Of a stretch of 24,518 nucleotides of DNA, positions 1-24,518 are shown one piece after another. The translations under genes were made by a program, and so were the position numbers. This DNA comes from a virus (taxonomy: Duplodnaviria > Heunggongvirae > Uroviricota > Caudoviricetes), in IMG/VR virus record IMGVR_UViG_2711768066_000004, positions 1 through 24,518 of that record; one strand, given 5' to 3'. The notes beneath the pieces are model-generated. The model did not search any database, had not been told where the DNA came from, and worked only from the letters and a program-made list of their open reading frames with translations. Every line of letters begins with the position of its first letter. The first letter of the stretch is position 1.

Positions 1-241
1 AAATCGTGTTGAGGCCAACGCCCATAATGCGGGCGGTTGCCCGGCATCCGACGCCATTCATGGCCATATCAATGATTTTCTGGTGCGTACCGGGTTGAGA
101 AGCGGTGTAAGTGAACTGCAGTTGCCATGTTTTACGGCAGTGAGAGCAGAGATAGCGCTGATGTCCGGCAGTGCTTTTGCCGTTACGCACCACCCCGTCA
201 GTAGCTGAACAGGAGGGACAGCTGATAGAAACAGAAGCCAC
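1..241 (-). CDS. insA: IS1 InsA transposase/repressor, N-terminal 80 codons (partial, runs off the window); GTG start
   Basis: Minus-strand translation [80 protein letters not shown] matches IS1 InsA as recalled. The 70-aa ORF 58..270 in the six-frame track is an alternative frame of the same DNA. Confidence 0.85.
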
Positions 242-296
242 TGGAGCACCTCAAAAACACCATCATACACTAAATCAGTAAGTTGGCAGCATCACC
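1..296 (-). mobile_element. IS1: IS1 insertion sequence, partial copy (left terminal ~296 bp of the 768-bp element; remainder lies outside the window), inverted relative to the right-hand copy
   Basis: Positions 274..296 are the reverse complement of the IS1 terminal inverted repeat GGTGATGCTGCCAACTTACTGAT. Bases 2..296 are the exact reverse complement of 24224..24518. The minus strand encodes the InsA N-terminus. Confidence 0.93.
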
Positions 297-708
297 TAAA
301 ATGTGTAGTTGGTGAAACTATTACTCTTGAAATATCAGAAATGATGTCTTCTTGAACTTGCCGATAAAGTAAATCCTTTGGGTAATGGTGTTTGATCTCG
401 ATGGTTGCAACATTGCCATTATGTTCAGACGTTAATATCGACTGGTTATAAAGTGATATGTCAACAGCGCCGATACCGAGTTTTGGATGCTCACTTAAAG
501 CAGTTAGTGTGCTGATTTGATTGAGAATAACAACTAACTCATCACGTATTTGAGTTTCATGTTTGCGATTGTAGAAGTAGCAATTCAGTTCATTTAACTT
601 TTTATGCATCCTATCGTGACTAATTGCTTCGATCAGTAAATCCTGAATCATACTTTTCTCTAGGTAATCCGAACGGTTGTAAGTGACAGTATTGTGCTGG
701 CATGTCAT
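292..708 (-). CDS. Hypothetical protein in low-GC cargo, likely C-terminally truncated by the IS1 insertion; contains a PD-(D/E)xK-like pattern (GAVDIS...ATIEIKHH)
   Basis: 138-aa ORF; its last codon and stop (292..297) overlap the IS1 terminus at 296, so the native C-terminus is probably missing. No Shine-Dalgarno at the first ATG; an alternative start is Met20 (649..651). Nuclease-like motif is read by eye only. Confidence 0.5.
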   Translation of the reverse strand: MTCQHNTVTYNRSDYLEKSMIQDLLIEAISHDRMHKKLNELNCYFYNRKHETQIRDELVVILNQISTLTALSEHPKLGIGAVDISLYNQSILTSEHNGNVATIEIKHHYPKDLLYRQVQEDIISDISRVIVSPTTHFR

Positions 709-751
709 TAGTATGTAAAGGTATTGTGAATGCCAGCAAGATAACGAAGTA

Positions 752-1087
752 TCATCGATAGAAAAACTTTACGGCCCACTCGTAAACCGCTTTGTAAATC
801 GGTTCATGGTAAATACTATCGATACTATTCAGATGTGCGATCATCGCCTCCACAGTTGTAGTGGTTGTTTCTAATATTTCGATTATTGCAGGGCGGTCAT
901 CATCTTCATCGAAGTATTCGAACAGCAGTACAGGTTTACCATGCCATTCAGCATCTGAGACTCTAAGGTTACAACTACCGCTCAACTCAAAGTGAATTTT
1001 GTAATTACCTTCTACAGAATGGCCTACGGGGAAAAAGCATAGGGTGTCATCTTTGTTTAAAAGCCATTCCCATTCATAACTATTCAT
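752..1087 (-). CDS. Hypothetical small acidic protein (111 aa from the SD-supported start; the ORF extends to 1105)
   Basis: ORF 752..1105; the internal ATG at 1085..1087 is preceded by AGGAG at 7-nt spacing, whereas the first ATG has no SD. Low-GC codon usage unlike the adjacent phage genes. Rich in D/E (EYFDEDDDRPAIIEILETTTTT). Confidence 0.55.
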   Translation of the reverse strand: MNSYEWEWLLNKDDTLCFFPVGHSVEGNYKIHFELSGSCNLRVSDAEWHGKPVLLFEYFDEDDDRPAIIEILETTTTTVEAMIAHLNSIDSIYHEPIYKAVYEWAVKFFYR

Positions 1088-1237: not shown

Positions 1238-1588
1238 ATGCCACCACGAACCCCAAAAGCCTGCCGCGTTCGCGGCTGCCCCCATACCACCACTGACTCG
1301 TCAGGCTATTGCGAAAGCCACAAAAGCGAAGGCTGGAAGCAATACAAGCCAGGCCAGTCCCGTCATCAGCGCGGCTACGGTTCGAAGTGGGACTGTATCC
1401 GCGCGCGTGTCCTGAAGCGTGACAAAGGCCTGTGTCAGTTATGTCTACGTGCTGGTGTGGTGCGTGAGGCGAAAACCGTTGACCACATCATCCCTAAAGC
1501 GCGTGGCGGCACTGATGCTGACAGTAATCTACAGAGCCTGTGTTGGCCGTGTCATAAGGCGAAGACGGCCCGTGAATGGCTGAAGTAA
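1238..1588 (+). CDS. Phage HNH homing-type endonuclease (terminase-associated)
   Basis: CxxC...DHIIP...N...LCWPCH motifs typical of the HNH/His-Me finger; sits immediately upstream of the small terminase gene as in many cos-packaging phages. Start chosen at the ATG preceded by AAGAGG (ORF track start is 1175). Confidence 0.8.
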   Translation: MPPRTPKACRVRGCPHTTTDSSGYCESHKSEGWKQYKPGQSRHQRGYGSKWDCIRARVLKRDKGLCQLCLRAGVVREAKTVDHIIPKARGGTDADSNLQSLCWPCHKAKTAREWLK

Positions 1589-1610
1589 GAACCAGTTCCC
1601 ACTGCCAGAG

Positions 1611-1674
1611 GGGAGGGGCGGGTCAAATCCCTGTGACCTGACGTCTTCCGGACTGCCCGCCCCATCGTTTTTTT
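1611..1674 (+). terminator. GC-rich inverted repeat (GGGAGGGGCGGG ... GCCCGCCCC) followed by a T7 run; putative intrinsic terminator or packaging-site-associated structure upstream of terS
   Basis: Inverted repeat arms at 1611..1622 and 1655..1663, with a TTTTTTT run at 1668..1674, in the HNH-terS intergenic region. The loop is long (~32 nt), so terminator function is uncertain. Confidence 0.3.
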
Positions 1675-1713
1675 ATACCCGCGAAAAATGAAATTTAACC
1701 AGGAGTGCCGCAT

Positions 1714-2208
1714 ATGGCTGGAACGGCGGGGCGTTCCGGGCGTCGCCCCAAGCCAACGGCGCGCAAGGCGCTGGCCGGAAACCCCGGCAAGCGAGCCCTG
1801 AATAAAGATGAACCTGTTTTTACGCCCATCAAAGGTGTTGAGCCACCGGAGTGGTTCGCTGAAGAAGATCTCCCTCTCGCCACGATCATGTGGCAACTGA
1901 CAACCAAAGAACTCTGCGGTCAGGGCCTGCTGTGCGTGACTGACCTCGCGGTGCTTGAGCGGTGGTGTGTGGCCTATGAGTTCTGGCGACGTGCCGTGAA
2001 AAATATTGCCAGACAGGGCAACACCATCACCGGCGCAATGGGCGGTATGGTCAAAAATCCTGAGCTGACCGCCAAAAAAGAACAGGAGTCCGAGATGAGC
2101 AGTACGGGGGCAATGCTCGGACTCGACCCCAGCAGCCGCCAGCGTCTGATTGGCCTGGCGGGGCAGAAGAAAGCCACTAACCCGTTTCTGAAAATTATCG
2201 AATCATGA
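1714..2208 (+). CDS. Terminase small subunit (P27 family)
   Basis: Sequence [34 protein letters not shown] resembles P27-family small terminases. AGGAG SD 8 nt upstream of the ATG at 1714 (ORF track start 1705). Stop overlaps the terL start (ATGA). Confidence 0.75.
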
Positions 2209-3938
2209 GCCGGAAATCTTACCCCAACGTAAATGCTGCCAATCAGTATGCCCGGGATGTCGTTCGCGGAAAGATTGTGGCCTGCCAGTTTGTGATTCAG
2301 GCCTGCCAGCGCCATCTTGATGACCTGATGGCGGAAAAAAGTAAGTCGTTTCGTTACCGCTTCGACAAGGACCTGGCTGAACGGGCCGCCAAATTTATTC
2401 AGCTGTTGCCGCATACCAAGGGTGAGTGGGCATTCAAACGGATGCCCATCACGCTGGAGCCGTGGCAGCTCTTTGTGATCTGCTGTGCGTTTGGCTGGGT
2501 CAATAAAGGTACCCGGCTGCGCCGCTTCCGGGAGGTGTATACCGAAATCCCCCGTAAGAACGGCAAATCGGCAATCTCTGCCGGTGTCGCCCTGTATTGT
2601 TTTGCCTGTGATAACGAGTTTGGCGCGGAAGTGTATTCCGGTGCCACGACAGAGAAACAGGCGTGGGAAGTCTTTCGCCCGGCGCGACTGATGTGTAAAC
2701 GCACACCCATGCTGACGGAAGCGTTCGGGATTGAGGTTAACGCCTCAAACATGAACCGTCCGGAGGATGGCGCGCGGTTTGAGCCGCTGATCGGTAACCC
2801 CGGTGATGGTTCATCACCCCACTGTGCGGTGGTGGATGAATATCACGAGCATGCCACCGATGCACTTTACACCACGATGCTTACCGGGATGGGGGCGCGA
2901 CGTCAGCCACTGATGTGGGCCATCACCACCGCCGGGTACAACATTGAGGGGCCGTGCTACGACAAGCGGCGGGAAGTTCTCGAGATGCTCAACGGTTCGG
3001 TACCCAACGATGAACTGTTCGGGATCATCTATACCGTTGACGAAGGCGATGACTGGACCGACCCGCAGGTGCTGGAAAAAGCCAATCCAAATATTGGCGT
3101 GTCGGTTTATCGCGAATTTTTGTTAAGTCAGCAGCAGCGTGCGAAAAATAACGCCCGTCTGGCAAACGTCTTTAAAACAAAACACCTCAATATCTGGGTG
3201 TCGGCGCGTTCGGCGTATTTCAACCTGGTGAGCTGGCAGAGCTGCGAGGATAAATCACTGACCCTTGAGCAGTTCGAGGGGCAGCCGTGCATTCTGGCCT
3301 TTGACCTGGCGCGTAAGCTGGATATGAACAGCATGGCGCGACTTTATACCCGCGAGATTGACGGTAAAACGCATTACTACAGTGTGGCCCCGCGTTTCTG
3401 GGTACCGTATGACACGGTGTACAGCGTCGAGAAAAATGAAGATCGACGGACAGCCGAACGCTTTCAGAAATGGGTGGAAATGGGCGTTCTGACCGTTACC
3501 GATGGTGCGGAAGTGGATTATCGCTACATCCTCGAGGAGGCCAAAGCGGCGAACAAAATCAGCCCGGTCAGTGAGTCACCCATCGACCCCTTCGGGGCGA
3601 CCGGGTTGTCACATGACCTTGCTGATGAAGACCTGAATCCCGTCACTATCGTCCAGAACTTCACCAATATGTCCGACCCGATGAAAGAGCTGGAAGCGGC
3701 GATTGAATCGGGACGTTTTCATCATGACGGCAATCCCATCATGACCTGGTGTATCGGCAACGTGGTCGGCAAAACCATTCCGGGTAACGATGATGTGGTG
3801 AAGCCCGTCAAAGAGCAGGCGGAAAACAAAATCGATGGTGCAGTTGCGCTGATTATGGCGGTTGGCAGAGCCATGCTGTACGAGAAAGAAGACACGCTGT
3901 CTGACCACATTGAGTCCTATGGGATCCGCTCGCTTTAA
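2205..3938 (+). CDS. Terminase large subunit
   Basis: 577 aa with a Walker A-like NGKS motif and a C-terminal nuclease-like region; position directly after terS and before portal. Confidence 0.88.
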
Positions 3939-3949
3939 CTGAGGTAATT

Positions 3950-4132
3950 ATGATCATGCTGATTCTCGCGCCTCTGGTGGGCGTGCTGGGGGCGCTTTTG
4001 CTGGCGTATGGTGCCTGGCTGATTTATCCCCCGGCGGGGTTTGTTGTTGCCGGGGCGTTGTGCCTGTTCTGGTCGTGGCTGGTGGCGCGATATCTCGACC
4101 GTACACAGTCGTCTGCCGGCGGAGGTAAATAG
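3950..4132 (+). CDS. Small hydrophobic protein (two predicted TM helices)
   Basis: 60 aa, [49 protein letters not shown]; GAGG SD upstream; wedged between terL and portal. Confidence 0.45.
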
Positions 4133-5373
4133 TGTTCTTTTCGGGATTATTTCAACGAAAAAGTGACGCACCGGTGACCACGCCAGCAGAGCTGGCGGAT
4201 GCTATCGGGTTGTCCTACGACACCTATACCGGAAAGCAGATCAGCAGCCAGCGGGCCATGCGACTGACGGCGGTTTTTTCCTGTGTCAGGGTGCTGGCGG
4301 AGTCGGTCGGGATGTTGCCCTGCAACCTGTATCACCTGAACGGCAGCCTGAAGCAGAGAGCCACTGGCGAACGTCTGCATAAGCTGATCTCCACGCATCC
4401 CAATGGCTATATGACGCCGCAGGAGTTCTGGGAGCTGGTGGTCACCTGTCTGTGCCTGCGGGGAAACTTTTACGCCTACAAAGTGAAAGCATTTGGCGAA
4501 GTGGCTGAACTGCTGCCCGTCGATCCCGGCTGTGTGGTACCGAAGCTTAACAGTAGCTGGGAGCCGGTCTATCAGGTCACATTCCCGGATGGCTCCACGG
4601 ATGTACTGAGCCAGGAGGATATCTGGCATGTGCGCACGCTGACGCTGGACGGACTGGTGGGGCTGAATCCCATCGCCTATGCCCGCGAGGCAATATCGCT
4701 GGCGGCAGCGACCGAAGAGCACGGGGCCAGACTGTTCAGCAATGGCGCGGTGACGTCGGGTGTGTTGCGTACAGAGCAGACGCTGTCAGATCAGGCTTAT
4801 GAGCGCCTGAAGAAAGATTTTGAGGAGCGTCACACCGGGCTTGGCAATGCTCACCGCCCGATGATCCTTGAGATGGGGCTGGACTGGAAGTCGATGGCGC
4901 TGAACGCCGAGGACAGCCAGTTCCTGGAAACCCGCAGGTTTCAGCTTGAAGAAATCTGTCGTCTGTTCCGGGTGCCGTTGCACATGGTGCAGAACACCGA
5001 TCGCGCCACCTTCAACAATATCGAAGAGCTGGGGCTGGGATTTATCAACTATTCACTGGTGCCGTATCTGACCCGCATCGAACAGCGGATCAACACCGGA
5101 CTGGTACGAAAAAGTAAGCAGGGCGTTTATTACGCCAAATTTAACGCCGGGGCGTTACTGCGCGGGGATATGAAGTCCCGTTTTGAAGCCTACGCCACCG
5201 GGATCAACTGGGGAATTTACTCTCCCAATGACTGCCGCGACCTGGAAGATATGAATCCGCGTCCCGGTGGTGATGTCTATCTCACACCGATGAACATGAC
5301 CACGAAACCCTCCGATGGCAGTAAAGCCGGTAAGCAGAAGGATAACGCCAATGCAGACGAAACAACGTCTTGA
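4132..5373 (+). CDS. Portal protein (HK97 family)
   Basis: 413 aa; position after terminase; sequence features typical of HK97-family portals. Probable GTG start at 4132 preceded by GGAGGT. Confidence 0.85.
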   Translation: MFFSGLFQRKSDAPVTTPAELADAIGLSYDTYTGKQISSQRAMRLTAVFSCVRVLAESVGMLPCNLYHLNGSLKQRATGERLHKLISTHPNGYMTPQEFWELVVTCLCLRGNFYAYKVKAFGEVAELLPVDPGCVVPKLNSSWEPVYQVTFPDGSTDVLSQEDIWHVRTLTLDGLVGLNPIAYAREAISLAAATEEHGARLFSNGAVTSGVLRTEQTLSDQAYERLKKDFEERHTGLGNAHRPMILEMGLDWKSMALNAEDSQFLETRRFQLEEICRLFRVPLHMVQNTDRATFNNIEELGLGFINYSLVPYLTRIEQRINTGLVRKSKQGVYYAKFNAGALLRGDMKSRFEAYATGINWGIYSPNDCRDLEDMNPRPGGDVYLTPMNMTTKPSDGSKAGKQKDNANADETTS

Positions 5374-6001
5374 TGTACCGCTGAGTCTGAAATCTGTCAG
5401 TGACTCCGGTGAGTTTGAAGGGTATGGCTCTGTCTTTGGTGTAAAGGACAGCCACGATGATGTGGTGATGTCCGGGGCATTTGCTGCTTCCCTGCGGGCG
5501 TGGAGTGACAGAAAAGCGTTACCTGCACTGCTCTGGCAGCACCGTATGGATGAGCCCATCGGTGTTTACACCGAAATGAAGGAAGACGATGTCGGGCTTT
5601 ACGTCAGGGGGCGGTTGCTCATTGATGATGATCCCCTGGCAAAACGCGCACATGCACACATGAAGGCCGGTTCGCTAACCGGCCTTTCTATTGGGTACGT
5701 CCTGAAGGACTGGGAATACGACCGGACGAAAGAAGCCTTTCTGCTGAAAGAAATCGACCTCTGGGAAGTCAGTCTGGTGACGTTTCCGTCTAACGACGAG
5801 GCGCGGATCAGCGACGTCAAGAACGCGCTGGCCCGCGGGGAAATCCCCGAACAGAAAAAAATCGAAAGAGTCCTGCGTGATGTCGGACTCTCCCGTACCC
5901 AGGCCAAAGCATTCATGGCCGGGGGCTATGGCGCACTGTCCCTGCGCGACGCTGAGGATGTGGGCTCTGCACTGAATGCACTGAAAAATCTGAACTTCTA
6001 A
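5351..6001 (+). CDS. Prohead maturation protease (HK97 family)
   Basis: EGYGSVFGVKDSHDDVVMSGAFAASL motif region typical of HK97-type prohead proteases; AAGGA SD before the ATG at 5351 (ORF track start 5315). Confidence 0.8.
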   Translation: MQTKQRLDVPLSLKSVSDSGEFEGYGSVFGVKDSHDDVVMSGAFAASLRAWSDRKALPALLWQHRMDEPIGVYTEMKEDDVGLYVRGRLLIDDDPLAKRAHAHMKAGSLTGLSIGYVLKDWEYDRTKEAFLLKEIDLWEVSLVTFPSNDEARISDVKNALARGEIPEQKKIERVLRDVGLSRTQAKAFMAGGYGALSLRDAEDVGSALNALKNLNF

Positions 6002-6015
6002 TCAGGAGAAATACG

Positions 6016-7221
6016 ATGGCGGTTGATATTAAAGATGTCGAACAGGTCGCGCAGGAGCTGCAGCAGAAGTTTGACGACTTCAAAGCAAAGAACGACAAGC
6101 GCGTGGATGCGATTGAGCAGGAAAAAGGCAAGCTTGCCGGGCAGGTGGAAACCCTGAACGGGAAACTCAGCGAGCTGGAAAATCTCAAAAGCGACCTTGA
6201 AAAAGAGCTGCTTGAGCTGAAACGTCCGGCAGGTGGTGCGCAAAATAAACTGGCCACCGAGCATAAAGAAGCGTTTGTGGGCTTCCTGCGTAAAGGCCGT
6301 GAAGACGGTCTGCGCGATCTGGAGCGTAAGGCATTGCAGGTGGGCACCGATGAAGACGGTGGCTACGCCGTGCCGGAAGCGCTGGATCGCAACATTCTCA
6401 ACCTGCTGAAAGATGAAGTGGTGATGCGTCAGGAAGCCACGGTGATCACCGTTGGCGGTTCCGACTACAAAAAACTGGTGAATCTGGGCGGCACGGCTTC
6501 CGGATGGGTGGGGGAAACGGATACGCGATCCCAGACTGCCACCTCCAGACTGGAGCTGATTGAACCTCTCATGGGGGAAATCTACGGCAACCCGCAGGCT
6601 ACCCAGAAAATGCTGGACGATGCCTTCTTCAACGTGGAAGCATGGATCAACAGCGAGCTGGCAACCGAATTTGCCGAACAGGAAGAAATTGCCTTTACCA
6701 CCGGCGATGGTACCAAGAAGCCGAAAGGGTTCCTGGCGTATGAATCCACGGATGAAACCGATAAGGTCCGGGCGTTCGGCAAACTTCAGCATATTGTATC
6801 CGGCGACGCGACTGCGGTGACCGCTGATGCCATTATCAAACTGATTTACACGCTGCGAAAGGCACACCGCACCGGCGCGAAGTTCATGATGAACAACAAC
6901 AGCCTGTTTGCCATCCGTTTGCTGAAAGACACCGAGGGTAACTATCTGTGGCGTCCGGGGCTGGAACTGGGGCAGCCGTCCTCTCTGGCGGGTTACGGTA
7001 TCGCTGAAAACGAACAGATGCCGGATATCGCCGCTGATGCGAAAGCCATTGCATTTGGTAACTTCAAACGGGGTTACACCATCGTTGACCGTATCGGCAC
7101 CCGCATTCTGCGTGACCCGTACACCAATAAACCGTTTGTCGGTTTTTATACCACCAAGCGCACCGGCGGGATGCTGGTCGATTCGCAGGCCATCAAACTG
7201 CTGAAGATTGCAGCGGCGTAA
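6016..7221 (+). CDS. Major capsid protein (HK97 fold) with N-terminal coiled-coil delta/scaffolding domain
   Basis: 401 aa; first ~100 aa are coiled-coil (KDVEQVAQELQQKFDDFKAKNDKRVDAIEQEKGKLAGQVETLNGKLSELENLKSDLEKE); follows the protease gene; AGGAGA SD. Confidence 0.85.
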   Translation: MAVDIKDVEQVAQELQQKFDDFKAKNDKRVDAIEQEKGKLAGQVETLNGKLSELENLKSDLEKELLELKRPAGGAQNKLATEHKEAFVGFLRKGREDGLRDLERKALQVGTDEDGGYAVPEALDRNILNLLKDEVVMRQEATVITVGGSDYKKLVNLGGTASGWVGETDTRSQTATSRLELIEPLMGEIYGNPQATQKMLDDAFFNVEAWINSELATEFAEQEEIAFTTGDGTKKPKGFLAYESTDETDKVRAFGKLQHIVSGDATAVTADAIIKLIYTLRKAHRTGAKFMMNNNSLFAIRLLKDTEGNYLWRPGLELGQPSSLAGYGIAENEQMPDIAADAKAIAFGNFKRGYTIVDRIGTRILRDPYTNKPFVGFYTTKRTGGMLVDSQAIKLLKIAAA

Positions 7222-7228
7222 TCATTCA

Positions 7229-7248
7229 GGGGCGCGGAACCGCGCCCC
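7229..7248 (+). terminator. Perfect 9-bp GC stem (GGGGCGCGG / CCGCGCCCC) with 2-nt loop right after the capsid gene; putative attenuator/partial terminator
   Basis: Seen directly in sequence 8 nt after the capsid stop codon; no strong T-tract follows, so probably only partial termination or an RNA-stability element. Confidence 0.35.
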
Positions 7249-7270
7249 CTGTTCTGACGGATGAAGAATC

Positions 7271-7471
7271 ATGATCCTGAAACAAGATCTGAAATGGTCA
7301 CCGGACGGTATGCGTGTTGAGGTCATTCGGGCCGGTGAGTATGACGACGGGGCGCTGCCTGCCCGGGTGCAGGAGATTGCACTTCAGGCCGGGTTAGCAG
7401 AGCGCGGAACCAGTGCAAAAAGCAGTAAAGCGGCAAAAGAGAAAAAAGCCACGACCAGTAAAGAGGGCTGA
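7271..7471 (+). CDS. Hypothetical small head-associated protein with lysine-rich C-terminus
   Basis: 66-aa ORF in the correct orientation between capsid and connector genes; weak SD. Confidence 0.4.
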   Translation: MILKQDLKWSPDGMRVEVIRAGEYDDGALPARVQEIALQAGLAERGTSAKSSKAAKEKKATTSKEG

Positions 7472-7473
7472 GT

Positions 7474-7797
7474 ATGCTTCTGACAATGGAAGAGATTAAA
7501 GCCCAACTCCGGCTGGATGAGGATTTCGATACTGATGACCGTCATCTGCAACTGCTGGCCTGTGCGGCGCAAAAGCGGACGGAAACGTATCTGAACCGGA
7601 AGCTCTATGCACCGGATGAAAACATTCCGGACAGCGATCCGGACGGACTACACCTGCCGGATGATATTCGTCTGGGGATGCTGATGCTTATCAGCCATTT
7701 TTACGAAAACCGCTCGTCGGTTACGGAAGTGGAGAAACTCGACATGCCGCAGAGTTTTGGCTGGCTTGTCAGCCCGTACAGGTACTTTCCGCAATGA
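7474..7797 (+). CDS. Head-tail connector protein (gp6-like DNA packaging/connector)
   Basis: 107 aa; N-terminal MLLTMEEIKAQLRLDEDFDTDDRHLQLLACAAQKRTETYL resembles phage gp6-like connector proteins; conserved position. Confidence 0.65.
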   Translation: MLLTMEEIKAQLRLDEDFDTDDRHLQLLACAAQKRTETYLNRKLYAPDENIPDSDPDGLHLPDDIRLGMLMLISHFYENRSSVTEVEKLDMPQSFGWLVSPYRYFPQ

Positions 7798-8204
7798 AAA
7801 TTCGTCAGGCGCAGACCAGCGCAACCTACATCCTGCCGGACCCCGGCGAAATGAATAAACGCGTCCTGATCCGCCAGCGGGTGGATATGCCCGCGGATAA
7901 CTTTGGCGTGGAGCCTCAATACCCGGTTGCGTTCCGGGCATGGGCGAAGGTTATCCAGACCAGTGCCACCACCTGGCAGGAAACCGCGCAGACCGGAGAC
8001 GCCATCACCCATTACATCACCATTCGCTACCGCCGGGGGATCACTGCTGATTATGAGGTGGTCTGTGGTGACAGTGTGTACCGCGTGAAACGTCAGCGTG
8101 ATCTGAACGGAGCGCGGCGCTTTCTGCTGCTGGAGTGTACGGAGCTGGGCGAATGTAGGCAGAGTCACGGAGGCAGCAATGGCGACTCCCTTTTTTCACG
8201 TTGA
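7794..8204 (+). CDS. Head closure / head-tail adaptor protein
   Basis: 136 aa; ATGA overlap with the upstream gene; conserved position and size. Confidence 0.6.
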   Translation: MKIRQAQTSATYILPDPGEMNKRVLIRQRVDMPADNFGVEPQYPVAFRAWAKVIQTSATTWQETAQTGDAITHYITIRYRRGITADYEVVCGDSVYRVKRQRDLNGARRFLLLECTELGECRQSHGGSNGDSLFSR

Positions 8205-9242: not shown

Positions 9243-9250
9243 GGATCCTC

Positions 9251-13500: not shown

Positions 13501-13507
13501 AGACGAA

Positions 13508-13529: not shown

Positions 13530-13532
13530 AAC

Positions 13533-13979: not shown

Positions 13980-14089
13980 GTTATCACCTTAATGCTAATA
14001 ATTTATATAGTTACAAATGGTAATGGCTACCACTACAAATTATGGCATTACCAGTAAATATTACTACTGATAATAAATATGGGACTTAT
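13980..14089 (-). promoter_or_regulatory. AT-rich upstream region of the moron; putative sigma70 promoter
   Basis: About 110 bp of roughly 25% GC with TATAAA/TATATA-like -10 candidates on the minus strand; exact -35/-10 pairing not resolved by eye. Confidence 0.3.
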
Positions 14090-15418: not shown

Positions 15419-16494
15419 ACGACAATGTCACGCTACGGGTAAATGGCCGGGAGTGGAATGGCTGGACATCGGTGCGCATCGGTGCCGGTATTGAACGGCT
15501 GGCACGGGATTTCAGTATGGAGATCACCCGCCAGTGGCCGGGAGATGAGGGTATCACCACGCTTCAGCCGCGTATTAAAAACGGTTCAAAAGTGGAAGTT
15601 CTGATTGGTGATGAGCTGGTGATCACCGGCTGGGTGGAGGCGACGCCCGTTCGTTACGATGCCCGTTCGGTCAGCACCGGTATTGCCGGACGCAGTCTGA
15701 CCGCTGACCTGATTGACTGTGCAGCCGAACCGACACAGTTTAACGGACGATCGCTGGTACAGATTGCGCAGGCGCTTGCTGCGCCTTTCGGCATTGAGGT
15801 GGTGAACAACGATGCGCCGTCGGGTGTTATTCCGGATGTCCAGCCTGATCACGGCGAAACGGTGATCGAGGTGATCAACAAAATACTCGGTCAGCAGCAG
15901 GCACTGGCTTACGACGACCCGCACGGCAGGCTGGTGATTGGCGGTATTGGCTCAACGCGGGCACATACCGCGCTGGTACTTGGGGAAAACATCCTTTCCT
16001 GTGATACGGAGAAGAGTATCCGGGAGCGGTTTTCAGTTTACCAGGTGGCGGGGCAGCGTGCCGGAAATGACGATGATTTCGGTGAGGCCACCACCACCGC
16101 GCTGCGGGCCCGCACAGAAGACGCATTTATTGCCCGTTACCGTCCGATGTATATCAGGCAGACAGGGCAGGCTACGGGGGCAGGCTGTATTGCCCGTGCG
16201 GACTTTGAAGCCCGGCAACGGGCGGCGCGGACGGATGAAACCACCTATGTGGTGCAGGGCTGGCGACAGGGTAACGGTACGCTGTGGCAGCCCAACCAGC
16301 GGGTGATTGTCTTCGATCCTGTCTGTGGTTTCGACAATACCGAACTGCTTGTCTCGGAAGTCACGTTTACTCAGGACCAGAACGGCACCCTGACGGAAAT
16401 CCGTGTCGGCCCACCTGATGCTTATCTGCCTGAACCCGAAGCCCCCGGCGCGCGGAAAAAGAAAAAAGCCAGAGTACAGGAGGACCCGTTCTGA
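15415..16494 (+). CDS. Baseplate hub protein (Mu gpP / gp44-like)
   Basis: 359 aa; ATGA overlap with the gpN-like gene; conserved Mu order. Confidence 0.7.
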   Translation: MNDNVTLRVNGREWNGWTSVRIGAGIERLARDFSMEITRQWPGDEGITTLQPRIKNGSKVEVLIGDELVITGWVEATPVRYDARSVSTGIAGRSLTADLIDCAAEPTQFNGRSLVQIAQALAAPFGIEVVNNDAPSGVIPDVQPDHGETVIEVINKILGQQQALAYDDPHGRLVIGGIGSTRAHTALVLGENILSCDTEKSIRERFSVYQVAGQRAGNDDDFGEATTTALRARTEDAFIARYRPMYIRQTGQATGAGCIARADFEARQRAARTDETTYVVQGWRQGNGTLWQPNQRVIVFDPVCGFDNTELLVSEVTFTQDQNGTLTEIRVGPPDAYLPEPEAPGARKKKKARVQEDPF

Positions 16495-17042
16495 TGAGGA
16501 CGATTGAAGCCATGCAGCGACAACTCCTCGGCCTGATTGGGCGGGCCGTGGTGAAAAGCATCAGTGCCGCCACGAAATGTCAGACCGTGGATGTGTCCCT
16601 GATTGCCGGTGAACCCAAAGCCGGGGTTGAACATCTTGAACCCTACGGTTTTACCGCAAGGGCAAACAGCGGTGCGGAAGCGGTGGTGTTGTTTCCGGAT
16701 GGCGATCGTTCTCATGCGGTGGTTGTTACGGTGTCGGACCGGCGCTACCGCCTGAAAGGGCTGCAGACGGGTGAGGTGGCTGTCTATGACGATCAGGGGC
16801 AGTCCGTGACGCTGACCCGGGAGGGGATCGTGGTGGACGGTGCAGGTAAAACGATCACGTTTCGCAATGCACCTGAAGCACGTTTTGAAATGGACCTTGA
16901 AGTGACCGGACAGGTGAAAGACCTGTGCGACTCCGGCGGCACCACCATGTCAGCGATGCGGCTTGCCTATAACGGGCATCGTCACAGAGAGAACGGTCAG
17001 GGCAGTAACACCGACAAACCTGATAAAGCGATGGAGGCATGA
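16494..17042 (+). CDS. Baseplate assembly protein V / spike (Mu gp45-like)
   Basis: 182 aa; translationally coupled; conserved Mu order and size. Confidence 0.6.
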   Translation: MRTIEAMQRQLLGLIGRAVVKSISAATKCQTVDVSLIAGEPKAGVEHLEPYGFTARANSGAEAVVLFPDGDRSHAVVVTVSDRRYRLKGLQTGEVAVYDDQGQSVTLTREGIVVDGAGKTITFRNAPEARFEMDLEVTGQVKDLCDSGGTTMSAMRLAYNGHRHRENGQGSNTDKPDKAMEA

Positions 17043-17467
17043 TGGAACTGTGGCTGACGGTGAACGGTAAACGCACCTGCGCCAGCGCACCGCTGGATCC
17101 GCTGACCCGCGCCGTGGTGATTTCCCTGTTTACCTGGCGGCGGGCGGAGCCTGATGACAATGCCGACGTCCCGATGGGATGGTGGGGGGATACCTGGCCT
17201 GCGGTACAGAATGACCGTTACGGCTCCCGACTGTGGCTGCTTCAGCGCAGCAAACTGACCAATCAACTGGTGCAGACGGTAAGGGGGTATATCCGCGAAT
17301 GCCTGCAATGGATGATTGATGACGGCGTGGTGTCCCGCATTGATCTGGATATCCGCCGCACCGGGATTAATGAACTGGGTAACAGTATCACTCTCTGGCG
17401 TCGTGACGGACCGGTAATGATTTCTTTTGATGATCTGTGGAGTGCGATAACGCATGGCGGACAGTGA
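17039..17467 (+). CDS. Baseplate protein (Mu gp46-like)
   Basis: 142 aa; ATGA overlap; conserved order between the gp45-like and J-like genes. Confidence 0.6.
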   Translation: MMELWLTVNGKRTCASAPLDPLTRAVVISLFTWRRAEPDDNADVPMGWWGDTWPAVQNDRYGSRLWLLQRSKLTNQLVQTVRGYIRECLQWMIDDGVVSRIDLDIRRTGINELGNSITLWRRDGPVMISFDDLWSAITHGGQ

Positions 17468-18512
17468 ATTTCAGCGCCCGACGCTGGCAGAAAATATCAG
17501 TATGCTCCGTAACGATTTATTCGCCAGGCTGGACGTCAGCGACACGCTCCGGCGCATGGATGAAGACGTGCGGGCAAAGGTGTATGCGGCGGCGCTGCAT
17601 ACGGTTTACGGTTACATCGATTATCTGGCAATGAACATGCTGCCTGACCTGTGCGATGAGTCCTGGCTGGCGCGACATGCTGCGATGAAACGGTGTCCGC
17701 GCAAGGGGGCCACGGCTGCCAGCGGGTATATGCGCTGGGAAGGTGTCAGCGATGGCCTGAAGGTGACCGCCGGGAGTGTTATTCAGCGCGATGACCTGGT
17801 TCAGTACACGGCAACTGCCGATGCAACCAGCTCCGGTGGTGTCCTGCGCGTGCCGATCGCCTGCTCAAGTGCAGGTGCGGTCGGTAACGCTGACGACGGT
17901 ACGGCATTAATCCTGGTCACGCCGGTGAATGGTCTGCCGTCTTCCGGTGTGGCTGACACCCTTACAGGCGGATTTGATACTGAAGAGCTGGAAACGTGGC
18001 GCGCCCGCGTCATTGAGCGGTATTACTGGACGCCTCAGGGCGGGGCTGACGGGGACTATGTCGTCTGGGCTAAAGAAGTGCCCGGCATTACCCGCGCATG
18101 GACATACCGTCACTGGATGGGAACGGGAACTGTCGGTGTGATGATTGCCAGCAGTGACCTGATTAATCCCATTCCGGAAGAATCAACGGAAACGGCAGCA
18201 AGACAACATATCGTGCCACTGGCCCCGGTGGCAGGCTCTGATTTGTATGTATTCAGGCCGGTGGCGCACAAAGTGGATTTTCATATCCGCGTGACGCCGG
18301 ACACACCAGAAATACGAGCCGCCATCACCGCGGAGTTGCGTTCGTTTCTTCTGCGTGATGGTTATCCGCAGGGAGAACTGAAGGTATCGCGTATCAGTGA
18401 GGCGATTTCCGGTGCGAACGGGGAATACAGCCATCAGTTGCTTGCACCGGCAGACAATATCTCCATTGCAAAAAATGAACTGGCGGTACTGGGGACGATT
18501 TCATGGACGTGA
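17454..18512 (+). CDS. Baseplate J-like protein (Mu gp47-like)
   Basis: 352 aa; conserved order and size. Confidence 0.75.
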
Positions 18513-19087
18513 CAAACGATGATTACATCCGTCTGTTGTCGGCACTGTTGCCCCCCGGTCCGGCGTGGTCAGCCAGCGATCCGGCGATTGCCGGTGCGGC
18601 ACCGTCATTAACCCGTGCTCATCAGCGTGCGGATGCCCTGATGCGGGAGCTGGATCCGCGCACCACCACCGAACTGATAAACCGCTGGGAGCGTCTGTGC
18701 GGCCTGCCGGATGAATGTATTCCGGCAGGGACGCAGACCCTTCGCCAGCGTCAGCAACGGCTGGATGCGAAGGTTAACCTGGCGGGTGGCATCAATGAGG
18801 ATTTTTACCTTGCGCAGCTTGCTGCCCTGGGCAGACCAGATGCCACCATCACGCGATACGACAAAAGCACGTTCACCTGCTCATCGGCCTGTACTGACGC
18901 GGTGAATGCGCCGGAATGGCGGTATTACTGGCAGGTCAATATGCCAGCTGCCACCAACACCACCTGGATGACATGTGGCGATCCCTGCGATTCCGCACTG
19001 CGTATCTGGGGGGACACCGTTATCGAGTGCGTGCTTAACAAACTCTGCCCGTCGCATACCTACGTAATTTTTAAATATCCGGAGTAA
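18503..19087 (+). CDS. Tail protein (Mu gp48 / YmfQ-like)
   Basis: 194 aa; precedes the tail fibre gene as in Mu and e14. Confidence 0.6.
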
Positions 19088-19090
19088 TCC

Positions 19091-20011
19091 ATGCATCGTA
19101 TAGACACGAAAACCGCGCAGAAGGATAAGTTCGGCGCGGGTAAGAACGGTTTTACCCGTGGTAACCCCCAGACCGGCACGCCTGCCACCGATCTGGATGA
19201 TGACTACTTTGACATGTTGCAGGAGGAGCTCTGCAGCGTGGTGGAGGCATCCGGTGCCAGCCTGGAGAAGGGGCGGCATGACCAGCTGCTTACCGCGCTT
19301 CGTGCGCTGCTGTTAAGTCGCAAAAATCCGTTTGGCGATATCAAATCGGACGGCACGGTGAAAACGGCTCTTCAAAACCTTGGTTTGGGAGATACAAGCG
19401 GATACGTGGGACGCCGGCTGAGTACCCGGGCTTTCGCGTCATCAGGTACGTATACCCCATCACCAGAAACAAAACGGATCAGGGTCACAATAACGGGCGG
19501 CGGTGGCGGTGGCTGCCAGGCTATATCCAGTAACGAAACGTTTTTCGGTGCTGGCGGTGGGGCCGGAGGGACAGTAATCACCATACTGACCCCGACACAG
19601 AATAGTTATCCTGTCACTATCGGCGCAGGTGGGGCCGGCGGCGTTGGTGCGACGAACGGCCTCAAGGGCGGTGATAGCTCGTTCGGATCGGTAATAGCCC
19701 CTGGTGGTGAAGGCGGCGGAAAAGTAGGAGTCACAAACACAAACGGCGGTAACGGAGGCGTACCGAATATTGGCGATATCCGCATCACTGGTGGAGATGG
19801 AGGCGACGGTCAGTCCGGGAATATCAGCGTCAGCGGTGAAGGCGGTGCATCGTACTGGGGAGGCGGTGGACGTGCAGGCGCTGGCGGTGGCGTTAGAGGC
19901 AGGGCATTTGGTTCAGGCGGAGGTGGTGCATACGATGCAGGTTATAGCGGAACCAGTATGACGGGCGGGAAAGGTGCTGATGGGGTTTGTATTATCGAGG
20001 AGTTTGCATAA
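19091..20011 (+). CDS. Tail fibre protein: constant N-terminal part (to about residue 97) fused to the currently expressed variable glycine-rich C-terminal part
   Basis: 306 aa; GGAG SD; the left crossover site lies in-frame inside the gene at the NLGLG motif; C-terminal two-thirds is Gly-rich ([21 protein letters not shown]). Confidence 0.8.
19371..19392. other. Left site-specific inversion crossover site (hix/gix-like), TTCAAAACCTTGGTTTGGGAGA
   Basis: Contains the palindrome AAACCTTGGTTT; an imperfect inverted copy is present at 21158..21180; resembles the Hin/Gin-family site consensus as recalled. Confidence 0.7.
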
Positions 20012-20421
20012 TGAATGCGTCATATGCAGTTATTGAAAATGGGATGGTTGTGAATGTCATTGTCTGGGATGGCGAGGATGAATTCACTGTGCCGGATAAT
20101 CTGCAGCTCATTAATATTTCTGATATCAGTGAGCAGCCCGGAATCGGCTGGGCGTATTCAGACGGGGTATTTACTGCGCCGCTCCCTCCGGAACGTTCTC
20201 ATGATGAACTGGTAGCTGACGCTGAACAGAAAAAACAGTCGTTGATAGACGCAGCAATGGTCAATATCAGCGTGATTCAGTTAAAGCTGCAGGCCGGGCG
20301 GAAGCTGACGCAGGCAGAAACCACCCGACTTAACGCCGTGCTGGATTACATTGACGCGGTGACGGCAACAGATACCAGCACTGCGCCGGATGTCATCTGG
20401 CCTGAACTGCCGGAGGCGTAG
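20011..20421 (+). CDS. Tail fibre assembly protein (currently expressed orientation)
   Basis: 136 aa; TAATG stop/start overlap with the fibre gene; GAGGAG SD; C-terminus (TSTAPDVIWPELPEA) resembles that of the convergent paralogue. Confidence 0.75.
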   Translation: MNASYAVIENGMVVNVIVWDGEDEFTVPDNLQLINISDISEQPGIGWAYSDGVFTAPLPPERSHDELVADAEQKKQSLIDAAMVNISVIQLKLQAGRKLTQAETTRLNAVLDYIDAVTATDTSTAPDVIWPELPEA

Positions 20422-20836
20422 GCCATTCAATATCTGGAGCACTGGAGGTATCAACCAGTTCCAGTGCGTCCAGATAATCCAGCCACAAATTATATTGCAC
20501 CAGTTCCTCACCTTTCAGACGACCAATTGATGCTTTACCTGGCCATTGTTTACTGTTGATGTATTCGTTGGCCTGATTAATCAATTGCTGCTTTTTAGTT
20601 TCGGCTGATGCAATTTGTTCTTCACGTGTTGGTGGAGGAATATCTACCCATGCAGGCAGTCCATCTTCTCCGACACATCTGTATTTTCCTTCTGGTGGTG
20701 TATCATAGAAATATTCCCTGAAAATTACTTCGTCTATATCAACACCTTTTTCTTCAGGCCACTCACCTTTTTCAACATAAAGAGACTTAAGTTCGTAAGG
20801 ATATGCCAGGTTGTTTACGTACAGATATTTCATCAT
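20393..20836 (-). CDS. Tail fibre assembly protein, alternative copy (expressed after inversion)
   Basis: 147 aa; convergent with and overlapping the other assembly gene by 29 bp; TAATG coupling to the silent fibre cassette. Confidence 0.7.
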   Translation of the reverse strand: MMKYLYVNNLAYPYELKSLYVEKGEWPEEKGVDIDEVIFREYFYDTPPEGKYRCVGEDGLPAWVDIPPPTREEQIASAETKKQQLINQANEYINSKQWPGKASIGRLKGEELVQYNLWLDYLDALELVDTSSAPDIEWPTPPAVQAR

Positions 20837-21210
20837 TACCAGCCCTTAGCGAAAAACGCACCACCTTCAAGACCATAATTGCAGTGAGCTATGAAGCCGG
20901 TAGTGCTCCAGTTGGTCGCCCCCCACATATTCCCACCCCCGAAACCACCATCGCACACAATTACAATGCCCGGTGTCTGTGTAAATGGAATCGGGAATGA
21001 AACATTGGCGGATACAGGCCCGTGTTCACTAGGAAAACTAATTCGTCCCCACTGTTCAATTGAACCATCTGGCATTTTTCGCCAGCCTGAACCTGATGCA
21101 TATGATGACATATCAGGTATCTGATTTTCCCCAGTTCCCACATTCCGTTTTGCCGCTTCTCCCAAACCAACGTTTATGAAGATGCAGAAATAACGAGCAA
21201 ATGGCATCAT
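20836..21210 (-). CDS. Silent alternative tail-fibre C-terminal cassette (promoterless in this orientation; only the part from about 21170 down to 20836 would be fused to the constant region after inversion)
   Basis: Minus-strand frame reads ...[20 protein letters not shown]... across the right crossover site, paralleling ...[13 protein letters not shown]... in the expressed gene; the Met at 21210 lies beyond the site and is probably not a native start. Confidence 0.6.
21158..21180. other. Right site-specific inversion crossover site (hix/gix-like), inverted copy
   Basis: TCTCCCAAACCAACGTTTATGAA is the reverse complement of the left site with about 2 mismatches; located about 57 bp upstream of the invertase start. 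Confidence 0.7.
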
Positions 21211-21440: not shown

Positions 21441-21460
21441 TAATCATTTTATTAATTGCA

Positions 21461-23410
21461 TTAATCGTGTTTTGGCCATACTTTCAATGCAATTTCCCCC
21501 AACTTTTTACCCCGCTCCAGGATTTCATCCTCATCCCATTTATCCTTAACTATAAGTGGAATGTTCAGTCGTAGATTGGTGTGGACGATGAGAGCATCAC
21601 GTTTTTTCAGAAATACAGCATTCTGAACAGAACGGTTTACGCTAAGGTTAAGCAAAGTTAGATTTCCCAACGTAGCTATCGCTTGTTGCCGTTTCCTTAC
21701 CAGTAGCTGTTCAGGGGTAAGATCGGTTCCAGACAGAACAATTTGGTTCAATACCGTAGCATCTGAATTTGTCACCATATGACCATTTTCGAGAGGCCAA
21801 CAGGAATACCAACTTTGAGGCATAAGATGATCGATATCGAGGTTAGAAAGATTTGGAACATCAGGCTTCTCTGTCTTCACTTGGCGACAAAGTTCTCTTT
21901 CAAGTTCCGTTAACATTGAGCGCATTTTCGGTGCGTCGAGCCTGCCAGGATAAAGTGGAGCATTGATGCAAGCGTTGAGAAATTCTGAGTCCCCAGGCCA
22001 ACGTGAGGCTTCGCCATTTAAGCTATTGAGGATATTACGTAACTCAACACTGGAAATTTCCGTTTTAGACAAGTGCCGCAATACATTCATAAATACATTG
22101 TTGTAATTCTTTGGCGTCAGGCCACATACGGCTCTTCGTACTACGTAGGAGACAAGATCATTATACATGGCTGCTTTCTCATCATCGGCGATGTTAGCTA
22201 TCGAAATGAACAAAGCAAGCGGATAAAGTGTCGTCACATCATAGGCTGCGATGCGATGTCCAAAGTGTGAGATGGGGGTTGTGCCAAAACCACCAACCAA
22301 TTCTTTATATTGTGATGCATATTGTTTGAGGCGCTTTACTTGCAGATCTGCTCGTTGTGAAGGCAAGTCCTTACTTACATAATCACGATACTCATTGTAA
22401 AGACGAGACAGATCGATTTCACGTTGCCTTTCTGATTGCAATGTCGCATGCACTAGCCACTCCATGCGTGGTTTATTAATACGACCACGACGTTGTCTTT
22501 CTGACCAGTACGTATCTTCAAAGATCTTCCACTCATTCTCATATAATTCAACAGCATTAATATTTTCATGTTCAGCGCACATAAAAATATAATTGCGAAT
22601 AAGATCTGTGGCATGAAGTTCCGCACCTCTGCCATTTAATGTTTCAAAAATTATTTGAGCGTCATCTTCAGCCTCGAGAAATATGCTTACTAGTTTCAGA
22701 TCCGTCAAGACAGCCTCAATTAATGCTACAGCATTTTCTCGTGGTGAGTGATTTTCTATTTTAATCCACTTTATAAAGGCTTCAGTAAAAAAACATAATG
22801 CTTCTAGTGATGGCGGGTGATTAAAATGCTTACGCAACGTACCATGCTGCGTGAAACTATCAGAGAATACATTCCGGATATCGTCAATATTTTCAACATT
22901 AAAACTTTGAATAAAATGAGTTTGATCCCGAAAAGTTGGCCACAGTTTGAAGCGCTCTACTTCTTTATTTCGCATTGTGTCTTCGTTTGAGTTTTTCAGG
23001 CAAGACGAAATGAGAGGCCCTAAGTTGGAAAGATCTGTCGCACGTAATGCTAATCGGATGGATGCCAGAACATATTGAAGAGTGGTCAATCGTTGCTGAC
23101 CATCAATAATATGTATGGAATCTACACCTAATAATCCTTTTTTTGGTTGAGGTTCCAGTACCACTGCACCAAGGAAATGGGGAGTTGGTTTTGTACCCGA
23201 GAGCCGGGATTGTGCTTTCTCTAGGATATCCTCCAGTAGAGCTGACCATTGGTTTCGCTGAGTCCATACATAGGCACGTTGATAGAATGGAACGCAGTAT
23301 TGTCGGCGGTCTTGAAAAAGTTGTTGGACAGTTAGCGTCTCGGATTTCATGGTATACCTGTAAGCGACATTGTACAAAAGTGAGGAGTTAATCTGATTTA
23401 GAACAATCAT
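21461..23410 (-). CDS. DUF262/DUF1524 fusion protein, GmrSD-family type IV (modification-dependent) restriction endonuclease-like
   Basis: N-terminal DUF262 hallmarks (VPFYQRAYVWTQRNQW and IIDGQQRLTTLQ); C-terminal DUF1524/His-Me-finger hallmarks (LDIDHLMPQSW, GNLTLLNLSVNRSVQN). Low GC. Likely true start is Met21 at 23350 (AGG 6 nt upstream and a TACAAT -10-like hexamer further up) rather than 23410. Confidence 0.8.
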   Translation of the reverse strand: MIVLNQINSSLLYNVAYRYTMKSETLTVQQLFQDRRQYCVPFYQRAYVWTQRNQWSALLEDILEKAQSRLSGTKPTPHFLGAVVLEPQPKKGLLGVDSIHIIDGQQRLTTLQYVLASIRLALRATDLSNLGPLISSCLKNSNEDTMRNKEVERFKLWPTFRDQTHFIQSFNVENIDDIRNVFSDSFTQHGTLRKHFNHPPSLEALCFFTEAFIKWIKIENHSPRENAVALIEAVLTDLKLVSIFLEAEDDAQIIFETLNGRGAELHATDLIRNYIFMCAEHENINAVELYENEWKIFEDTYWSERQRRGRINKPRMEWLVHATLQSERQREIDLSRLYNEYRDYVSKDLPSQRADLQVKRLKQYASQYKELVGGFGTTPISHFGHRIAAYDVTTLYPLALFISIANIADDEKAAMYNDLVSYVVRRAVCGLTPKNYNNVFMNVLRHLSKTEISSVELRNILNSLNGEASRWPGDSEFLNACINAPLYPGRLDAPKMRSMLTELERELCRQVKTEKPDVPNLSNLDIDHLMPQSWYSCWPLENGHMVTNSDATVLNQIVLSGTDLTPEQLLVRKRQQAIATLGNLTLLNLSVNRSVQNAVFLKKRDALIVHTNLRLNIPLIVKDKWDEDEILERGKKLGEIALKVWPKHD

Positions 23411-24223
23411 TTTATGTTGCTATGATACAACGTATTTGTTACCGGTTAAGTAAAAAACGCGTCTGAACGCTGACGTTTTAGGGCTTTACTAGTTATTCTT
23501 TCTTATCTCTTCATCATCCCATCGGCATCCTGTCGAGGGGTTGTTGACTTGTTGTTATTTATTTTGTTTAGGCGCTGTTTAATTATTATTGATGGGACTG
23601 GTGGTGAGAGGTGATTGAAACCGCAGACAGGTCGTATGCAAGACGTGCTGCGGTTGGCTGGTAAATGTTAGATAGTGCGAGTATTGAATGATTTCTAGCC
23701 GTTATTGATTTTACGTATTTTTGTATGAGAGGATTTGCATCTCCTGCCACCGACCCTCCATGACTTTACGCCACTGTCTCTAGGGCTGCTATGTGCCAGG
23801 AGCAGCCATTGCTAAGTCCATCCTGTATTGTGCAGGTCAGCTCGTTTTTAAAGAGTCCGGCCACCATCTTACTGGTACAGACACCATATACTTTGTGACG
23901 GTCAGGCTACATATGCACAACTCAACTTATTCATCTATTTTTTGCTTTAGCATGTCAGTGTTGCTTTCTCGTCGGCGGGTGAGCGGTGACCTGACCTGTC
24001 GATAAAGGAACGTAGCACGTTTTATGCAACACCCGCATGCGGCAGAAAATTATTGCCGAACGTTTACCCCTGTCAACAAGCTTTACTTTCTGAGGCGCGC
24101 CAGCCCGCGAGGAAAACAATCTGAACATCAAACAATTAATGACACAAGAAATACGATTAAAGATTTTTTTGTGCATGCCGATAGTGCTTTTTTAAAAGGA
24201 GAAATCTATGTCTGTCACAATTC

Positions 24224-24518
24224 GGTGATGCTGCCAACTTACTGATTTAGTGTATGATGGTGTTTTTGAGGTGCTCCAGTGGCTTCTGTTTCTATCAGCT
24301 GTCCCTCCTGTTCAGCTACTGACGGGGTGGTGCGTAACGGCAAAAGCACTGCCGGACATCAGCGCTATCTCTGCTCTCACTGCCGTAAAACATGGCAACT
24401 GCAGTTCACTTACACCGCTTCTCAACCCGGTACGCACCAGAAAATCATTGATATGGCCATGAATGGCGTCGGATGCCGGGCAACCGCCCGCATTATGGGC
24501 GTTGGCCTCAACACGATT
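24224..24518 (+). mobile_element. IS1: IS1 insertion sequence, partial copy (left terminal 295 bp; remainder outside the window)
   Basis: Begins with the IS1 terminal inverted repeat GGTGATGCTGCCAACTTACTGAT at 24224; exact inverted duplicate of the left-edge copy. Confidence 0.93.
24279..24518 (+). CDS. insA: IS1 InsA, N-terminal 80 codons (partial, runs off the window); GTG start
   Basis: Same translation as the left-edge copy; the track ORF 24250..24462 is an overlapping alternative frame. Confidence 0.85.

Follow-up and report, generated by a model that had tools for sequence, protein, structure and literature searches.

The window analyzed here is a stretch of 24,518 nucleotides (nt), the complete viral record IMGVR_UViG_2711768066_000004 (Caudoviricetes). 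It represents the structural-gene half of a prophage of the SfV/e14 type, which sits at thrW in an IS1-rich lineage of Escherichia coli, and it is bounded by two inverted copies of the insertion sequence (IS) IS1. We consider it very probable that these copies are the result of two separate IS1 insertions, each accompanied by a deletion on one side only, i.e. of ordinary IS-driven prophage decay. At both copies one junction is constant among related genomes while the other one varies, and the missing DNA is contiguous in relatives, which is the pattern of IS-promoted nested deletions.

The initial annotation, made from the window alone, had described its edges as exact inverted duplicates of the IS1 left end, and this could be confirmed. 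A repeat finder places the arms at 2-299 and 24221-24518 (298 nt, 100% complementary). By direct reading, IS1 truly occupies 1-296 (minus strand) and 24224-24518 (plus strand), and these two arms are perfectly complementary; the three bases beyond these limits are a chance extension of the repeat with one mismatch. The DNA enclosed by the two arms (297-24223) comprises 23,927 bp. Both arms begin with the left terminal inverted repeat (IRL) GGTGATGCTGCCAACTTACTGAT and encode InsA residues 1-82, and the arm fragment has Pfam matches to Zn_ribbon_InsA (2.5e-20) and HTH_Tnp_IS1 (2.2e-24; PF03811, PF12759). The opposite ends of the window both stop at IS1 nucleotide 295/296, presumably about 3 nt short of the point at which this IS1 variant diverges from IS1A (...ACGATTTT followed by CCGCC versus ACGTC).

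Dozens of draft assemblies contain the block as a contig of 21-24 kb that terminates in IS1 (for example loci L014-L017). Likewise, the protein that is truncated by IS1 at the left junction (119 amino acids, aa) occurs in 80 blocks of a large protein collection, mostly on contigs of 20-50 kb that end within IS1. Since its ends stop inside IS1 and many drafts carry similar contigs, the window is probably a repeat-bounded contig. The identical stop nucleotide at both ends and the draft contigs could also be taken to mean that the terminal inverted duplicates are merely an artefact of assembly or windowing, that is, a repeat-collapsed contig end. This explanation is highly improbable: the junctions between unique sequence and IS1 are real and are contained in the window itself, and a complete genome and a contig of 86 kb, both with IS1 at full length, show the same junctions. 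As both ends of the window lie inside IS1, the initial annotation rightly stated that the window alone cannot decide between a composite transposon, an inversion product and two insertions.

Whole-window and junction searches, the latter with 200-nt queries, were run against 5,426 complete E. coli genomes, and deletion endpoints were mapped by exact pattern searches. The loci referred to below are labeled L001 (strain ET474), L004 (T2), L010 and L011 (KTa005) and L003 (JNE120442). At least 80% of the window is present in 205 of the genomes, in each case as an annotated prophage. The nearest one is E. coli ET474 (NZ_CP100954.1), which differs by 6 substitutions and by the inverted state of 19380-21170. 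Its left side reads proA, tRNA-Thr (thrW), integrase, a helix-turn-helix gene, yfdT, a phage protein gene, yfdR, a frameshifted open reading frame (ORF) and IS1 (minus strand). There follow two small ORFs, the HNH gene, the late genes, the tail fibers, an invertase remnant, the DUF262 gene and a ydfV remnant, and then, on the right side, IS1 (plus strand), ykgA and rclCBA. Over positions ~1305-19096 (~18 kb) the late module has ~97% nt identity to the Shigella phages SfII, SfI, SfIV and SfV. This homology, together with the thrW/proA site, places the prophage among the SfV/SfI/e14-type elements; SfI-type phages integrate at thrW beside proA and have their late module in common with e14 (PMC3636060).

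ET474 carries both IS1 copies at their full length of 768 bp (left, L001 7529-8296; right, L001 32224-32991). They differ at one base, position 665 (99.9% identity), and their terminal inverted repeats are present, with the ends GGTGATGCTGCCAACTTACTGAT and GGTAGTGACTCCAACTTACTGAT, in agreement with the size of ~768 bp and the imperfect inverted repeats of ~23 bp that characterize the family. The organization typical of the IS1 family, with InsA (zinc ribbon and helix-turn-helix) joined to InsB' by a programmed -1 frameshift, is evident from the InsA domains on the fragment, DDE_Tnp_IS1 (PF03400) on the full copies and an A6C motif at L001 32527-32533. The base at position 665, which lies outside the window, is a T-to-C exchange private to the right ET474 copy, which changes Leu to Pro in InsB; neither the left copy nor the one in T2 and KTa005 has it.

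The initial annotation had proposed to compare the target duplications of the two copies at their outer ends. In ET474, the 9-bp flanks of the left IS1 are AGGAAAAGA (outer) and TAAAATGTG (inner) and those of the right IS1 are TCACAATTC (inner) and CAAGGATAA (outer), so that neither copy has an 8-9-bp direct duplication of its own. The missing duplications reflect a deletion at one end of each IS1 and are no argument against the IS1 identity.

The same flanks bear on the possibility that the IS1 pair and the enclosed DNA are a composite transposon that moved into the site as a unit. Two intact copies with their right inverted repeats (IRR) directed outward do bracket the DNA, and natural IS1 composites with inverted arms exist (Tn1681). 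However, the outer flanks of the ET474 pair, AGGAAAAGA and CAAGGATAA, differ, and thus there is no common outer duplication. The block is also continuous with the rest of the prophage in IS1-free relatives, and the E. coli collection yielded no second copy with these junctions, neither elsewhere in a genome nor on plasmids; the block occurs there in the thrW prophage context only. We therefore regard the composite transposon as effectively refuted.

An inversion of the block, now or recently, by homologous recombination between the inverted IS1 pair (as an inversion product or a flip-flop) is very unlikely, too. Two 768-bp inverted repeats with 99.9% identity at a distance of 23.9 kb are a competent substrate, and the window is mute on orientation. 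Yet the flanks do not display the swapped halves of duplications that an inversion leaves behind: in ET474, the reverse complement of TCACAATTC, GAATTGTGA, does not match AGGAAAAGA, and that of TAAAATGTG, CACATTTTA, does not match CAAGGATAA. T2, 127, KTa005 and JNE120442, in which one or both IS1 copies are absent, agree with ET474 in the order and orientation of the genes from the integrase to flxA, including the late genes and the GmrSD (DUF262) gene. Moreover, the block has the ancestral orientation relative to int-yfdR and the chromosome in ET474 and in the independent 86-kb contig CATUCS010000022.1 (L013), which extends from the truncated gene across IS1 to yfdR...int. Thus, in the genomes open to examination, the block has stayed in its place and orientation. 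We also considered an origin of the left copy from the right IS1 by intramolecular replicative 'inversion-insertion', which was rejected because the intervening DNA is not inverted.

Of the options in the initial annotation, two independent insertions come closest to these results. The two copies are indeed separate, and the block is collinear with its relatives. The matching duplications and the undisturbed context that had been expected for such insertions are missing, as contiguous flanking DNA has been deleted on one side of each copy.

At the left IS1, the outer end is the fixed one. Strain T2 is 99.8% identical and lacks the left IS1; here, ...AACAACGTAAAAGGAAAAGA runs straight into the ATG of an ECs1072-family gene, and the sequence at window position 297, TAAAATGTGTAGTTGG, comes 10,353 bp later, directly after ...GGATTATATGGA. 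The sequences that adjoin the left IS1 on either side in the window lineage thus directly border an uninterrupted segment of 10,353 bp in T2 (L004 1648-12000). This segment contains the repressor, cro, ymfL, the replication genes, RusA, KilA-N, Q, a TIR-plus-caspase pair, holin, endolysin and the spanins, and it ends with the last 215 nt of a 189-aa gene. The outer junction (flank to IRR) was found exactly in three of the complete genomes (ET474, YSP8-1 and MB46), the inner junction (IRL to flank) in ET474 only. In ET474 and the window, the IRL end joins L004 12001 in the 189-aa gene (deletion of 10,353 bp). In MB46 it joins the position equivalent to window 22407, inside the DUF262 gene (32,469 bp), and in YSP8-1 it joins L004 36988, inside a yagU remnant past the right IS1 (35,340 bp). 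One constant end with three nested endpoints is the classical signature of IS-promoted adjacent deletions.

At the right IS1, the inner end is fixed and the deletions extend outward. The inner junction in codon 6 of flxA is exact in 4 of the 5,426 genomes (ET474, MB46, KTa005 and T2). On the outer side, T2 and KTa005 continue with the 3' part of yagU, ET474 with the fdeC-ykgA spacer (endpoint at KTa005 L011 8762) and MB46 with the rclR-ykgE spacer, 4,889 bp further than in ET474. Relative to KTa005, ET474 lacks a further 15,465 bp with 'yagU, ykgJ, ecpEDCBA-R, ykgL, ykgO, ykgM, ykgR and fdeC, and no other carrier of its outer junction was found among the complete genomes. According to the IS1-free relatives, the first loss on this side comprised the rest of flxA, a beta-flower gene, the right attachment site (attR), yagP' and the pao genes. 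The right-hand IS1 deletions (L001 32992-33100 compared with L011) have thus cost the ET474 lineage first the pao genes for an aldehyde oxidoreductase and later the ecpRABCDE common pilus operon, the adhesin gene fdeC and the genes ykgM and ykgO for zinc-independent ribosomal protein paralogues; MB46 additionally lacks rclABC and rclR. T2 was rejected as a right-side ancestor of ET474, since it has lost ykgA whereas ET474 keeps this gene. KTa005 is the better ancestor proxy for the right side.

Both IS1 junctions cut genes, as had been noticed from the window. The left IS1 had been said to abut the end of the ORF at 292..708. The contact is real, but it is more than an abutment, because the last 71 codons (the 3' 215 nt) of the 189-aa gene are gone. 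The ORF now ends in ...THF-R-stop, with an Arg codon that spans the junction and a TGA (292-294) inside IS1 (GGTGA). The 118 codons in the window match the N-terminus of the T2 protein at 117 of 118 positions. At the right junction, the claim that IS1 interrupts an ORF with a Shine-Dalgarno sequence after five codons holds: AAGGAG precedes an ATG at 24208, MSVTI follows (ATG TCT GTC ACA ATT C), and IS1 then contributes GG-TGA, so that flxA is cut in codon 6. The uncut flxA-like gene of strain 127 encodes 110 aa (Pfam FlxA, 5.1e-15).

The junction sequences, the missing duplications, the collinearity and the distribution of common and variable junctions among genomes are directly established; from these we infer the order of events and the enzymatic mechanism. 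Each IS1 would have inserted once in an ancestor, followed by a loss of DNA at one end that was repeated in different descendants. The insertion site of the left IS1 would be in the early-left region, directly upstream of the ECs1072-family gene, with a constant IRR end and deletions proceeding from the IRL end. At the right IS1, the IRL end in flxA would have remained constant while deletions proceeded outward from the IRR end, first to yagU (common to T2 and KTa005) and then, in ET474, over another 15,465 bp to the fdeC-ykgA spacer. The predicted junctions before deletion are IS1-IRL followed by AGGAAAAGA-AATGTCCGG and IS1-IRR followed by TCACAATTC-AGGGAAATACC. IS1 can make intramolecular adjacent deletions in which the IS and one flank are retained and the target duplication is destroyed, and such a transposase-mediated event would be the likeliest route at both copies. 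In the literature, a missing target duplication is usually ascribed to adjacent deletion or to IS-IS recombination (PMC11708052), and IS-mediated deletions that remove prophage genes recur in E. coli (PMC4173774).

It is possible, though clearly the less probable route, that the same history ran through RecA-dependent recombination with a second, directly oriented IS1 at each distal endpoint, leaving one hybrid IS1 and no duplication. The products cannot be distinguished from those of adjacent deletions, and IS-IS recombination is documented for missing duplications (PMC11708052; PMC4173774). These genomes have ~36-40 or more places that match IS1, and other strains have IS1 copies in yagU and at a distance of tens to hundreds of bp from the endpoint on the ykgA side. 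On the other hand, this route requires some six additional IS1 insertions, each in the right orientation, one per distinct endpoint. No IS1 was found at the exact endpoints in the 5,426 complete genomes, and the left inner and right outer junctions are confined to ET474.

Several points weigh against two insertions with one-sided deletions as we have reconstructed them. When the four junctions were compared with the 5,426 complete genomes, no simple IS1 insertion with a 9-bp duplication was found at either site, and because of this, that insertion came first and deletion later is what we infer. Homologous recombination with a second direct IS1 would give identical junctions, so that the enzymatic route is ambiguous. 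The first insertion on the right could have been in flxA or else in yagU, with a subsequent deletion toward flxA. CUPS04 has the same IS1-'yagU junction as T2 and KTa005 with a different flank on the IRL side; the 'fixed' end of the right IS1 has therefore itself been remodeled in at least one lineage. Finally, how the block is oriented in its source genome, and what flanks it there beyond the IS1 copies, cannot be read from the window, and ET474 is assumed as a stand-in.

Homologous recombination between IS1 copies in inverted orientation, as here, can flip the block but has no way of deleting it. This orientation may be the reason why the block persists in many isolates, which is a plausible survivorship argument. 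A much stronger claim would be that the IS1 pair turns the head-tail module and the GmrSD gene into a maintained unit of 25.4 kb, protected from deletion, flipping in some cells or mobilizable as a composite, and kept as a domesticated particle or defense cassette. We find this hard to believe. The window and ET474 differ by just 6 substitutions in 24 kb, and therefore the intactness of the structural genes is not evidence of selection. The prophage of the window lineage has kept its integrase and the left attachment site (attL) and lacks the repressor, the replication genes, Q and the lysis genes; in ET474, attR is missing as well. It is a locked remnant, unable to excise or replicate. The features of the window are listed in Table 1.

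Table 1. Features of the window, in order of position
Feature	Position	Strand	Remarks
Left IS1 fragment, first 296 nt (IRL and 5' insA)	1..296	-	Cut by the window edge; RefSeq 'IS1 family transposase, programmed frameshift'
Truncated accessory gene, no Pfam match	292..651	-	118 of 189 codons kept; stop 292-294 from IS1
Hypothetical accessory gene, 111 aa, WP_001089762.1	752..1087	-	Intact, low GC; intact relatives have it between lysis module and HNH
Late (structural) module, SfI/SfII/SfV/e14-type temperate myovirus	1238..19087	+	Annotation and nt homology
OB-fold (tRNA_anti-like) accessory gene, low GC	13533..13979	-	PF12869, 2.9e-19
Tail-fiber gene, 306 aa, glycine-rich type	19091..20011	+	As read in window orientation; Gly_rich_2 fiber in relatives
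Invertible tail-fiber segment, ~1.79 kb	19380..21170		Exact reverse complement of the ET474 state
Serine invertase remnant, 41 codons	21237..21359	+	Resolvase N-terminal domain, 4.3e-09; annotated as partial
GmrSD-family (DUF262/DUF1524) type IV restriction gene, 629 aa	21461..23350	-	GmrSD_N 4.5e-34, GmrSD_C 4.9e-20
ydfV pseudogene remnant	23790..24005	+	ET474 L001 31790-32005
flxA-like gene start, 5 codons and 1 nt	24208..24223	+	AAGGAG upstream; remainder lost
Right IS1 fragment, first 295 nt (IRL and 5' insA)	24224..24518	+	Cut by the window edge

The late module encodes HNH, the small and large terminase, portal, protease, major capsid, connector, sheath, tube, tape-measure, DNA-circulation and baseplate proteins. 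Between the tape-measure and DNA-circulation genes, the OB-fold gene (GC content 0.44) is inserted on the opposite strand; ET474 and T2 have it, strain 127 and JNE120442 do not. The GmrSD gene, in a region with a GC content of 0.39-0.44, occupies the place where the rest of the invertase gene would be expected. As it was found in all relatives examined, including the IS1-free ones, it is a phage-borne defense accessory gene that is older than the IS1 events. A family of 21-nt direct repeats (D1) was judged to be a chance match within coding DNA.

The initial annotation had noted low-GC cargo at both IS1-proximal ends of the block. The low GC content stands (0.42 at positions 1-1000 and 0.39-0.47 at 20-24 kb), and there is a third low island in the middle of the block (13.0-14.5 kb, 0.44). 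The term cargo is misleading, because all three islands are also resident in relatives without the IS1 copies. They are thus phage accessory genes rather than IS1 cargo.

The only inversion that we detected in the window is that of the 1.79-kb tail-fiber segment. It switches the fiber C-terminus between the 306-aa glycine-rich form (window, 127 and KTa005) and a 207-aa gp53-like form (ET474 and T2). The crossover sites at ~19368-19392 and ~21158-21182 read TTCTCCCAAACC-AA-GGTTTTGAAGAG and TTCTCCCAAACC-AA-CGTTTATGAAGA, which we take to be hix/gix-like. As the cognate serine invertase is a stub of 41 codons, flipping must occur in trans by another Pin/Gin-type invertase.

The slot between Q and holin, which the left IS1 deletion removed from the window lineage, carries a different minus-strand cassette in each relative: a TIR gene and a caspase-family gene in T2 (L004 8761-10138), a KAP-family NTPase gene in KTa005 (L010 13772-15103) and a 1,050-aa metallophosphoesterase gene in JNE120442 (L003 7970-11122). 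It looks like a hot spot for defense genes.

Further IS1 matches near the two sites are independent insertions, which cluster at the same places in related prophages (L008 4090-4870, L009 4130-4900 and L025 8620-9317). In VTB97420v, IS1 is located 6 bp from the left site. In EP91B it lies in a prophage at the icd/e14 locus, ~34 bp from the left site as deduced from the span of the match. A group of 12 genomes (H111-H122) has an IS1A 70 bp further into flxA, and in CP145662.1 another IS1 joins the tail-fiber region to yfdP. Most of these insertions come with deletions. Their positions suggest preferred IS1 targets in AT-rich intergenic DNA.

The phenomenon is already known, the arrangement is already annotated in RefSeq genomes, and it opens no new question. 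Its value is that of a clean natural example in which IS1 copies serve as fixed anchors for successive one-sided deletions of a prophage and the adjoining chromosome. The IS1 bounds also explain why a separate 'orphan contig' of ~24 kb recurs in many draft genomes, and they are a warning that the orientation of such a block is unreadable from short-read contigs ending in IS1.

IS rearrangements in experimental evolution likewise use the IS as a substrate for large rearrangements, and prophage genes are often lost (PMC4173774); unlike there, no inversion between the IS1 pair was detected here. Other comparisons can be made with e14 of E. coli K-12 and with cryptic SfV/SfI/SfII-type prophages at thrW. 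They have the late module (~97% nt identity), a Pin-type invertible fiber segment and decay to a non-inducible state in common with the prophage in the window, and the thrW/proA integration site is a feature of the Sf phages that is the same here. In contrast to those remnants, the structural module looks complete while the immunity, replication and lysis genes and attR are missing; there are no gtr serotype-conversion genes, and a GmrSD gene stands in place of the invertase gene.

In IS1 composites, two full IS1 copies bracket a segment as they do here, in direct orientation in Tn9 and inverted in Tn1681. The pair described here differs in that there is no common duplication and no sign of movement, and the supposed cargo consists of resident prophage DNA that is still in its original setting. 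IS1-promoted deletions in the gal region were reportedly described by Reif and Saedler in 1975, and Turlan and Chandler are said to have studied intramolecular rearrangements of IS1 in 1995. Compared with IS1-promoted adjacent deletions (reviewed in PMC11708052), the present case involves natural isolates instead of a selection experiment, two IS1 copies within one prophage and a putative role of the transposase. It agrees with these nested deletions in that the IS is kept, one flank is constant and the other variable, there is no duplication, and the losses extend over tens of kb.

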